This document shows positions 41,918-43,055 of a stretch of 43,216 nt of DNA, one piece after another. Below the pieces are notes generated by a model that had not been told where the DNA came from, ran no database searches, and was given only the letters and a program-made list of their open reading frames with translations. Position 1 is the first letter of the stretch. The number at the start of each line of letters is the position of its first letter. This stretch comes from a virus: the UHGV virus genome UHGV-0353264; one strand, 5' to 3'. The position numbers and the translations under genes are program-made.

Positions 41918-42565
41918 CTATGAAGCTAATTTGTTTAATTTCATTTGTAGCAACTTTACTTCTTGGTCGATAATGTTGAATCCCTTATTGACTGCATCTC
42001 TTAGCTCTGCATCAATATTTTTTATCCCTTGAGCATAATCTACCATTACATCTATTTTTGCATCATGTAATCTCTTATACATGGTTTTATCTTTGTTATT
42101 GTCAGCCATACCAATAAGGATTTTTTCATAATCCTCAATGAGTTTGTTGTTTCCTTTAAATGATTGTATTAATGACCGTGAATATGTGTAGATATTAATT
42201 ATTGAGTCTCTGGCAGAATCATTTAGTTTTGCAATGACATTCGCATTTTGCTCATAGAATGTGAAATTATCATCCCCTACAGGGAAAGTGAGAATTAACA
42301 TCTGTCCGGGTTTGATATTATCAATGTGTGTTTTCATCCTTTTATTATATAAATTGATTAGGGTGAAAACTTCTCCCTTAACACCTTTTAATACTGAAAG
42401 TTGCAATTCAAGGGATTCTCTTTCTGTCTCTACTTTAGACAGCTTAGCTTGTTGGGTAACTCCTTTTAGGGTAAACCATCCGCCAATAAGAGTACCAACT
42501 AGAGCTGTGAGGGAGGAGGATAACCATCCAGGAATGCTATTTAAAAAATTACTAAATTCACTCAT
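41918..42565 (-). CDS. Membrane-anchored coiled-coil protein of unknown function (cargo)
   Basis: 215 aa; N-terminal TM helix (IPGWLSSSLTALVGTLIGGWFTL), then coiled-coil and globular region; AT-rich. Confidence 0.5.
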   Translation of the reverse strand: MSEFSNFLNSIPGWLSSSLTALVGTLIGGWFTLKGVTQQAKLSKVETERESLELQLSVLKGVKGEVFTLINLYNKRMKTHIDNIKPGQMLILTFPVGDDNFTFYEQNANVIAKLNDSARDSIINIYTYSRSLIQSFKGNNKLIEDYEKILIGMADNNKDKTMYKRLHDAKIDVMVDYAQGIKNIDAELRDAVNKGFNIIDQEVKLLQMKLNKLAS

Positions 42566-42623
42566 TATAAGTACTCGCTAATATTGAACGATATATATAT
42601 CAAATTATTATAAAACTCGTCAG

Positions 42624-43055
42624 CTACTGGAGAAGGCTACCTGAACTTCGATCTATTCCTGCATCCATATAGTTGATGGTCTTCTGGAGCTCTTCGATTA
42701 GGGCAACAGCTTTTGCTCGAGAAATGCATATTAGTTGATCCGGAAATTCTTGTAAGGGCCAGTTTGGTATACTGGCCATGTTATCAGTGAAGGATGCAGA
42801 CAAGTAAACTTCATTGGTAACCAGAGAATAGCTTACCTCAAAATTGGTGAGCTCCGGCAAACTGCTAACGTTTGACTCTTTTCTGCGCATAACGTTATCC
42901 AGGACTGTGATTATGTACAGGTGATGGTCTTCAATTTTGAAGAGGGAGTCAAGGGGAGTCTCAAATGAACCGTTATAGAAAGGGGGGATCTTTGTGTTGC
43001 TGAACTTATGCAAAATTTTTTTGCACCATAAATCCAACAACACATTCAATAACAC
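42624..43055 (-). CDS. Hypothetical protein (cargo, upstream partner of 41918-42565)
   Basis: 143 aa; AT-rich; same strand, 58-bp spacing to the downstream gene. Confidence 0.45.
   Translation of the reverse strand: MLLNVLLDLWCKKILHKFSNTKIPPFYNGSFETPLDSLFKIEDHHLYIITVLDNVMRRKESNVSSLPELTNFEVSYSLVTNEVYLSASFTDNMASIPNWPLQEFPDQLICISRAKAVALIEELQKTINYMDAGIDRSSGSLLQ

Follow-up and report, generated by a model that had tools for sequence, protein, structure and literature searches.

The window analysed here, UHGV virus genome UHGV-0353264 at its full length of 43,216 nucleotides (nt), is a segment of the Escherichia coli chromosome that carries a 42-kb myovirus prophage within the 5' end of yfhL, and at the right attachment (att) site of this prophage, attR, lie two small genes that we call geneA and geneB, geneA being the one next to attR. 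A first-pass annotation had taken the two for a single cargo module. We propose, with a probability of roughly 0.6, that the region is instead a composite of an SOS-controlled terminal phage gene, geneA, and an independently mobile membrane moron, geneB, a proposal carried by the anatomy of the region, the separate distributions of the two genes, the conservation of an operator in front of geneA and the linkage of geneA relatives to dinI. The two genes are a chance juxtaposition in a cargo slot and not a dedicated pair, and what they form is a variant of a known arrangement, the SOS operon at a prophage end. Their extents are as follows:

42624-42890, minus strand: geneA, a coding sequence of 88 amino acids (aa) (PHROG 17793, E = 5e-44, over residues 56-143 of the longer open reading frame; 267 nt in the PGAP annotation of comparison locus L002; alignments).
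42891-43055, minus strand: spurious N-terminal extension of geneA, 55 codons (frame-shifted in close relatives; insertions and deletions in a poly-C tract).
41918-42565, minus strand: geneB, 215 aa (PGAP WP_001288814, hypothetical protein; open reading frame, homologues and AlphaFold2 model).

As had been stated before, the two open reading frames share a strand, the minus strand, and are rich in A+T; their G+C content is 0.31-0.42, whereas that of the phage body is about 0.50. The length of 143 aa that the first-pass annotation gave to the first gene does not hold. The minus-strand frame at 42624-43055 reaches this length if read from a GTG, and we regard it as over-called because PHROG 17793 and PGAP cover only its residues 56-143, because the homologues in Salmonella, Citrobacter and phage SEN34 measure 87-88 aa, because close E. 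coli relatives translate in shifted frames 5' of M56 (in L002 the 88-aa product is identical to that of geneA, yet a 1-nt insertion or deletion lies upstream), and because the promoter and operator of the gene fall within the extension. The stretch 42891-43055 is non-coding and contains, besides these two elements, part of the att arm. The short gene is easily overlooked: PGAP leaves it out of the IAI1 record and of some three quarters of the listed E. coli matches.

Two regulatory features were found in this upstream stretch:

42903-42922, unstranded: LexA (SOS) box ACCTGTACATAATCACAGTC (pattern match; position weight matrix score 13.7; core CTGT-N8-ACAG at 42905-42920).
42924-42952, minus strand: putative geneA promoter (-35 element TTGACT at 42947-42952, 17-nt spacer, -10-like GACCAT at 42924-42929).

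The box ends 13 nt 5' of the geneA ATG. What is conserved in the upstream DNA of homologues from unrelated prophages is the TTGACT, a -10-like hexamer 17 nt further on and the CTGT-N8-ACAG palindrome; in the three prophages whose upstream regions align, the palindrome stops 12-13 nt short of the ATG, and TTGACT and its spacing are kept in Salmonella (L012) and E. coli (L016), where the flanking DNA is otherwise unalignable. The promoter was missed by a generic promoter and terminator scan and was recognised solely through this conservation across phages. Using an approximate LexA weight matrix trained on E. coli sites known from the literature, we found a box in 11 of 11 geneA-family loci, 31-68 nt 5' of the start and with scores of 13.7-27.2 (training sites, 13.0-26.9), and three sites scoring 12 or more in the entire 43-kb window. 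The predicted box at 42903-42922 overlaps the promoter or transcription start, the placement by which members of the LexA regulon are recognised. LexA bound to this operator would keep geneA silent in the undamaged lysogen and release it in the SOS response.

A second, stronger LexA box, TACTGTATGTTGATCCAGTG, with a score of 18.0, is present at the opposite end of the prophage (1030-1049), 121 nt 5' of the ATG (1170) of the integrase gene int, with the phage-supplied yfhL start (955, minus strand) on its other side. Excision would bring the two boxes to about 300 nt from each other, across attP. Since the stronger box lies between their starts, int or the rebuilt yfhL may be SOS-controlled as well.

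In six loci, all from more divergent branches of the family, dinI (PF06183) lies 7-10 nt 3' of the geneA homologue, namely in phages Fostie and YeP1 and in L045, L047, L052 and L054 (Salmonella, Yersinia-type, Enterobacter and Ewingella), the L047 locus being divergent from umuDC. In the window there is no dinI at this place, and its position is filled by geneB. Thus geneA is a conserved terminal gene of this and several other phage lineages, the first to be read inward from the att site, and heads a geneA-dinI operon in most other branches of the family, in a position resembling that of the small LexA-controlled modulators TumA and Tum.

The geneA product is small and acidic (net charge about -4), and AlphaFold2 models it as beta-beta-beta-alpha with a predicted local distance difference test (pLDDT) score of 71.5. 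Its family ranges over phages of E. coli, Salmonella, Citrobacter, Enterobacter and Yersinia, is found at prophage ends, and has homologues in 11 phage records, none of them Gifsy, according to tblastn against phage genomes. The statement of the first-pass annotation that neither protein shows an assignable motif agrees with our searches, in which geneA and geneB gave no above-threshold match in Pfam, NCBIfam or PADLOC and PHROGs returned only family 17793, of unassigned function. A sequence-profile search of the PDB gave no match below E = 1, an Rfam scan of the region and of one geneB locus gave none, and no literature was found for the protein accessions or for orf97 and tum. The geneA family appears to be undescribed and, judging from the operators in front of its members, is probably under SOS regulation; the protein might act as a small dimer that binds other proteins and thereby modulates signalling in the SOS response or in prophage induction.

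The BssS/YceP family (PF13991), with about 85 aa, is comparable in size to the geneA family and is among the top two sub-threshold Pfam matches for nine of ten divergent family members (the best match for eight; E = 0.001-0.19), all of these matches sharing one register in the C-terminal helix. The scores, 12-19 bits, lie under the 27-bit gathering cut-off. The geneA protein of the window itself has no match to Pfam BssS, the reverse test of a geneA-family hidden Markov model (HMM) against K-12 BssS gave 2.5 bits, which was equalled by 34 of 2000 shuffles and is not significant, and hhalign put the probability for geneA and BssS at 0.4%. In K-12, dinI and bssS adjoin (L044, 2202-2988), mirroring the phage geneA-dinI arrangement, and this adjacency is a possible pointer to a phage origin of BssS or to a functional link.

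In E. coli geneB sits in an insert whose edges can be placed:

41833-42608, minus strand: geneB insert, delimited by homology breakpoints in other E. coli prophages.

The sequence shared by 68 genomes begins at 41833 and runs rightwards only, and that shared with phage vB_EcoM-606R2 begins at 42609 and likewise runs rightwards only. Only about 43 nt of the insert precede the geneB ATG, and nucleotide homology of this geneB to those of other genera is confined to the coding sequence; in other genera geneB is preceded by a conserved upstream block of its own with a TATAAT. The settings in those genera are varied. Enterobacter carries the gene in a HigBA toxin-antitoxin islet, Dickeya in an integrative and conjugative element (ICE) and Salmonella in a phage-like element; Providencia prophages have it directly behind cI and an HSDR_N gene, Morganella behind tail protein J and Klebsiella next to int. 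Relatives with 31% identity are found on non-mobilisable IncFIB plasmids of about 110 kb. The neighbours are mutually unrelated, and none is conserved.

An imperfect palindrome of about 70 nt (AACTTCCGC...GCAGAC-loop-GTCTGC...GCCAGAAGCGGAAGTT, ending in GTTAAAC) occurs near geneB in other genera, 5' of the gene in L025 (Dickeya, 5775-5844) and 3' of it in L030 (Salmonella, 6666-6728), and a shorter related sequence is found in the geneB flanks of L018, L027 and L038. This element, which looks attC- or REP-like (resembling repetitive extragenic palindromes), may account for the cassette-like mobility of geneB. An integron gene cassette, for which an attC site with paired RYYYAAC and GTTRRRY cores would flank the gene, was considered for these homologues; the left core of the element is non-canonical for attC, no integrase was seen, Rfam gave no match for it, and the window contains no such element. 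At the left edge of the insert in the window, the 46 bp at 41833-41878 show 91-93% identity to a stretch of phages HK97 and HK106 that follows their tail genes and bears no annotation; they may represent what is left of a terminator, or a point of recombination common to these phages.

The distributions of the two genes separate them further. Among complete E. coli genomes geneB is present in 80 and geneA in 121. The E. coli copies of geneB are 95-100% identical and at least 73 of the 80 lie in the same locus, which points to a single acquisition. In a tblastn comparison of 23 loci, geneA and geneB occurred together only in the E. coli yfhL prophage; no geneA match was obtained in 13 geneB loci from other genera, and in about 20 such loci no neighbour of geneB has the size of geneA. 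Conversely, geneA is found without geneB in SEN34, vB_EcoM-606R2, Salmonella prophages and other E. coli prophages. As the two do not co-occur elsewhere, the module fails the co-occurrence check that the first-pass annotation had set for it, and we find no support for it.

That the 215-aa protein is anchored in the membrane at its N-terminus and is helical, as had been claimed, is borne out by its sequence and model. The best 19-residue transmembrane (TM) segment comprises residues 15-33 and holds a GxxxGG motif, of which G24, G28 and G29 are invariant; in the AlphaFold2 model (pLDDT 82.6) a helix of residues 13-82 extends the TM helix and packs with two further long helices, between which lies an invariant FP[VI]GDDNF loop. 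Lysine and arginine residues average 0.09 before the TM helix and 4.0 after it, so the N-terminus is predicted to be outside and the C-terminal domain cytoplasmic, where the model suggests a four-helix bundle. There are 216 homologues across Enterobacterales with 61-75% identity, in Dickeya, Enterobacter, Yersinia, Serratia, Providencia, Proteus, Klebsiella and other genera, and a profile search (E <= 1e-3) extends the family to 666 cluster representatives, with no annotated relative among them. A role as i-spanin was considered and rejected, since the phage has its own lysis cassette elsewhere, geneB is not restricted to phages, and its topology is predicted to be N-out/C-in. The bundle has some likeness to the 4HB_MCP and TorS sensor domains and to DUF3829, with 5-11% identity and no Pfam 4HB_MCP match; geneB differs in having a single TM helix and a bundle predicted to be cytoplasmic and not periplasmic, and generic helical bundles score about as well.

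The placement of the two genes between an acyltransferase gene and attR was correctly recognised before, and the junctions can be fixed:

43098-43114, unstranded: attR core TCACACATATCACAATT (same as the attL core, 909-925; aligned with the prophage-free site of K-12).
42971-43097, unstranded: P' arm, the phage side of attR (kept at 85-99% identity in yfhL prophages without geneA).
43091-43144, minus strand: displaced native 5' end of yfhL (ATG at 43144, 17 codons and a stop; translation and comparison with K-12).
40276-41343: Acyl_transf_3 gene (Pfam, E = 3.9e-18; start from PGAP).

The 17-nt core is present twice in identical form, at 909-925 (attL) and 43098-43114 (attR), and alignment to the empty K-12 site assigns 1-945 and 43098-43216 to the host. 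With a 1.7-kb query (window 41500-43216), the right end is 100% identical to strain A37 and 99.9% identical to IAI1. The phage is a Brunovirus-like myovirus, with SEN34 as its nearest named relative; its integrase gene starts at 1170 and adjoins attL, and at the other end the tail-fibre genes are followed by the acyltransferase gene and then by geneB and geneA, which adjoin attR. Upon integration the first 16 codons of yfhL are swapped for a phage-encoded copy at attL that differs in two residues, A2S and K8R (909-955 compared with 43098-43144), and the host yfhL is rebuilt with a promoter region of phage origin. The displaced native start (ATG 43144, minus strand) points at geneA and geneB, in agreement with the transcriptional direction given earlier; a TATAAT hexamer 5' of it (43180-43185) is oriented toward geneA, and the promoter and terminator scan found no terminator-like site between the displaced yfhL end and geneA.

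The stretch from the tail-fibre and invertase genes to geneA is a variable slot, which elsewhere holds a different acetyltransferase, an orphan of 281 aa or three small genes. A hexapeptide-type 'serine acetyltransferase' replaces the Acyl_transf_3 gene in L002 (7245-7790), where geneB is kept; in L014 (4854-5699) the 281-aa orphan, with a HEPN-like R-x4-H motif, replaces geneB; and in L015 (4777-5874) a 108-aa gene, a DUF2335 gene and a 90-aa gene replace both geneA and geneB. None of these occupants, nor any neighbour of geneB, had a PADLOC match. The earlier description of the region as a cargo slot is right for the slot itself and for geneB, which behaves as cargo; it does not fit geneA, a conserved terminal phage gene preceded by a LexA box.

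Two further observations concern the prophage and its relatives. A 253-aa prophage protein at 5749-6510 (minus strand) contains a CAP12/Pycsar-type TIR domain (Pfam, E = 2.9e-31) and matches the PADLOC candidate single-gene defence family PDC-S35 (E = 7e-109). The 'complete genome' of phage vB_EcoM-606R2 (ON470579.1, L003) contains the host genes yfhH, pgpC and tadA beyond attR, and the record therefore overruns the prophage boundary.

Taken together, we envisage that geneB, unrelated to geneA and self-moving, landed 3' of geneA, where relatives have dinI or other cargo, and lost the upstream region that it carries in other genera. With that region lost, a gap of only 58 nt between geneA and geneB and no detectable terminator in it, geneB is most likely co-transcribed with geneA, on a joint transcript that would start at the LexA-controlled promoter, arise by read-through from the displaced yfhL promoter, or both. 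Its product would be held in the inner membrane by the conserved GxxxGG helix, with the four-helix bundle in the cytoplasm, and by analogy with Orf97 of phage 186 it might act in superinfection exclusion or abortive infection.

Several points weigh against this composite reading. The box in the window is the weakest of the family (13.7), the matrix is approximate, and LexA binding is predicted. A weak promoter in the 58-nt spacer could free geneB from geneA, and, in the opposite direction, the fact that at least 73 of the 80 E. coli geneB copies adjoin geneA makes a locally evolved functional coupling possible. The prophage CI carries an S24 self-cleavage domain, so induction needs no antirepressor. 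BLASTP gave no alignment of geneA with Tum or TumA, family members aligning only at E >= 4.5, and geneB shows no similarity to Orf97. Defence-system HMMs run on both proteins, which had been singled out as possible defence cargo, matched neither: PADLOC-DB 2.0.0 has no family for geneA or geneB and gave no match for the neighbours of geneB, and ten remote geneB relatives produced only chance-level matches. Nor was geneB found in 50,697 deposited phage genomes.

Among the alternatives, the one that survives best, unlikely as we consider it, is that geneA is itself a LexA-controlled antirepressor, a functional counterpart of TumA or GfoA, binding a phage repressor to set off or coordinate prophage induction. 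The LexA box and the place directly before dinI in relatives are those of tumA-tumB in PSP3, the protein is small with a modelled fold that resembles a dimerisation module, and such genes sit outside immunity regions and can act on the repressors of other prophages (PMC3121763). However, the CI repressor gene of this prophage (13441-14115, minus strand) encodes a Peptidase_S24 domain (E = 2.6e-18) and a GDSM motif, and the repressor thus departs from what a Tum/TumA-type antirepressor would be expected to act on, a repressor that is not self-cleaving and is inactivated by binding; moreover, geneA resembles no annotated antirepressor, Tum and TumA included. Phages that differ in integrase and tail modules carry highly conserved members of the family, which fits a conserved host target better than a variable repressor.

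The view that geneA and geneB make up one defence or toxin-antitoxin-like module, with an acidic partner and a membrane effector, draws on their shared strand, the 58-nt gap free of a detected terminator, their adjacency in 73 or more of the 80 geneB-bearing E. coli genomes and their location in a variable cargo slot. It is nevertheless quite improbable and largely refuted by the distributions, as the pair is confined to a single E. coli prophage lineage in which geneB is 95-100% identical, while elsewhere geneB is always alone and geneA is accompanied by dinI or by nothing; PADLOC had no match either.

We see very little prospect for geneA as an accessory factor of excision or recombination directionality. 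It would flank attP opposite int, with LexA boxes at both, it is always the first gene beside the att site, and the second LexA box (18.0) in front of int is strong. On the other hand, the protein is acidic and its beta-beta-beta-alpha model is neither winged-helix nor helix-turn-helix (HTH), a separate small HTH gene (AlpA-type in SEN34) adjoins int, and members of the family are found alongside integrases and att sites that are unrelated to one another (yfhL, tRNA-Ser and others). Least probable of all, and hardly credible, is a lysogenic-conversion accessory role of geneB together with the neighbouring acetyltransferase on surface polysaccharide. A transferase does adjoin geneB in both E. 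coli arrangements (Acyl_transf_3 here, the 'serine acetyltransferase' in 68 genomes), but the two transferases are of unrelated types, no transferase neighbours geneB in seven other genera, and the geneB bundle is predicted to be cytoplasmic.

The composite of a terminal SOS gene and a mobile moron has consequences beyond this prophage. If LexA control is real, geneA is a widespread and unannotated addition to the phage-borne SOS regulon of Enterobacterales, and its close tie to dinI gives access to the question of what prophage DinI proteins do. The geneB family, with its 666 representatives and its recurrence in prophage, ICE and phage-plasmid-like moron slots, is a reasonable single-gene candidate for exclusion and defence screens. 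In addition, the region illustrates that genes may adjoin at a prophage end without forming a module.

Prophages carry superinfection-exclusion and abortive-infection morons, and geneB shares their general make-up, a single small AT-rich gene whose product has one TM helix as an N-terminal anchor, as well as their classic slots (behind cI or tail protein J, next to int, or at an att end), with no homology to any such protein. For the region as a whole, the closest known systems are those of phages 186 and PSP3. The phage 186 record shows p95 with a LexA site, tum and orf97, the last annotated 'expression from plasmid blocks 186 infection', and the PSP3 record shows tumA followed by tumB, a dinI homologue. 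The tumA-tumB and tum arrangements were treated by Lemire et al. in 2011, with tum of phage 186 being a TumA-DinI fusion (PMC3121763), and the same work describes LexA-controlled antirepressor genes as lying outside immunity regions and able to act on the repressors of other prophages. As with the putative promoter of geneA, the LexA-operated promoter of 186 and PSP3 is at the prophage end and outside the immunity region; their small first gene is fused to dinI or stands before it, which holds for the relatives of geneA and not for the window; and in 186 a membrane-protein gene lies downstream, as geneB does here, Orf97 having N-terminal hydrophobic helices. The differences are that 186 and PSP3 are P2-like, whereas this phage is Brunovirus-like with a self-cleaving CI, and that geneA has a beta-beta-beta-alpha model and is not followed by dinI here. 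The dinI-gfoA-irsA operon of the Gifsy phages also has an SOS box ahead of a small-gene operon with dinI, at a distance from the immunity region (PMC3121763), but its gene order is reversed relative to geneA-dinI, and the Gifsy repressors are without a cleavage domain, unlike the CI of this prophage. Here we speculate, as a tentative and rather improbable extension, that the geneA family comprises small, LexA-controlled, DinI-coupled phage proteins, possibly distant kin of BssS, that link prophage behaviour to the SOS response of the host, and whose SOS promoter has in this prophage captured a membrane effector, geneB, with an exclusion or abortive-infection function that would be armed by DNA damage or by integration beside the yfhL promoter, so that the tum-orf97 arrangement of phage 186 would have been reinvented from non-homologous parts.

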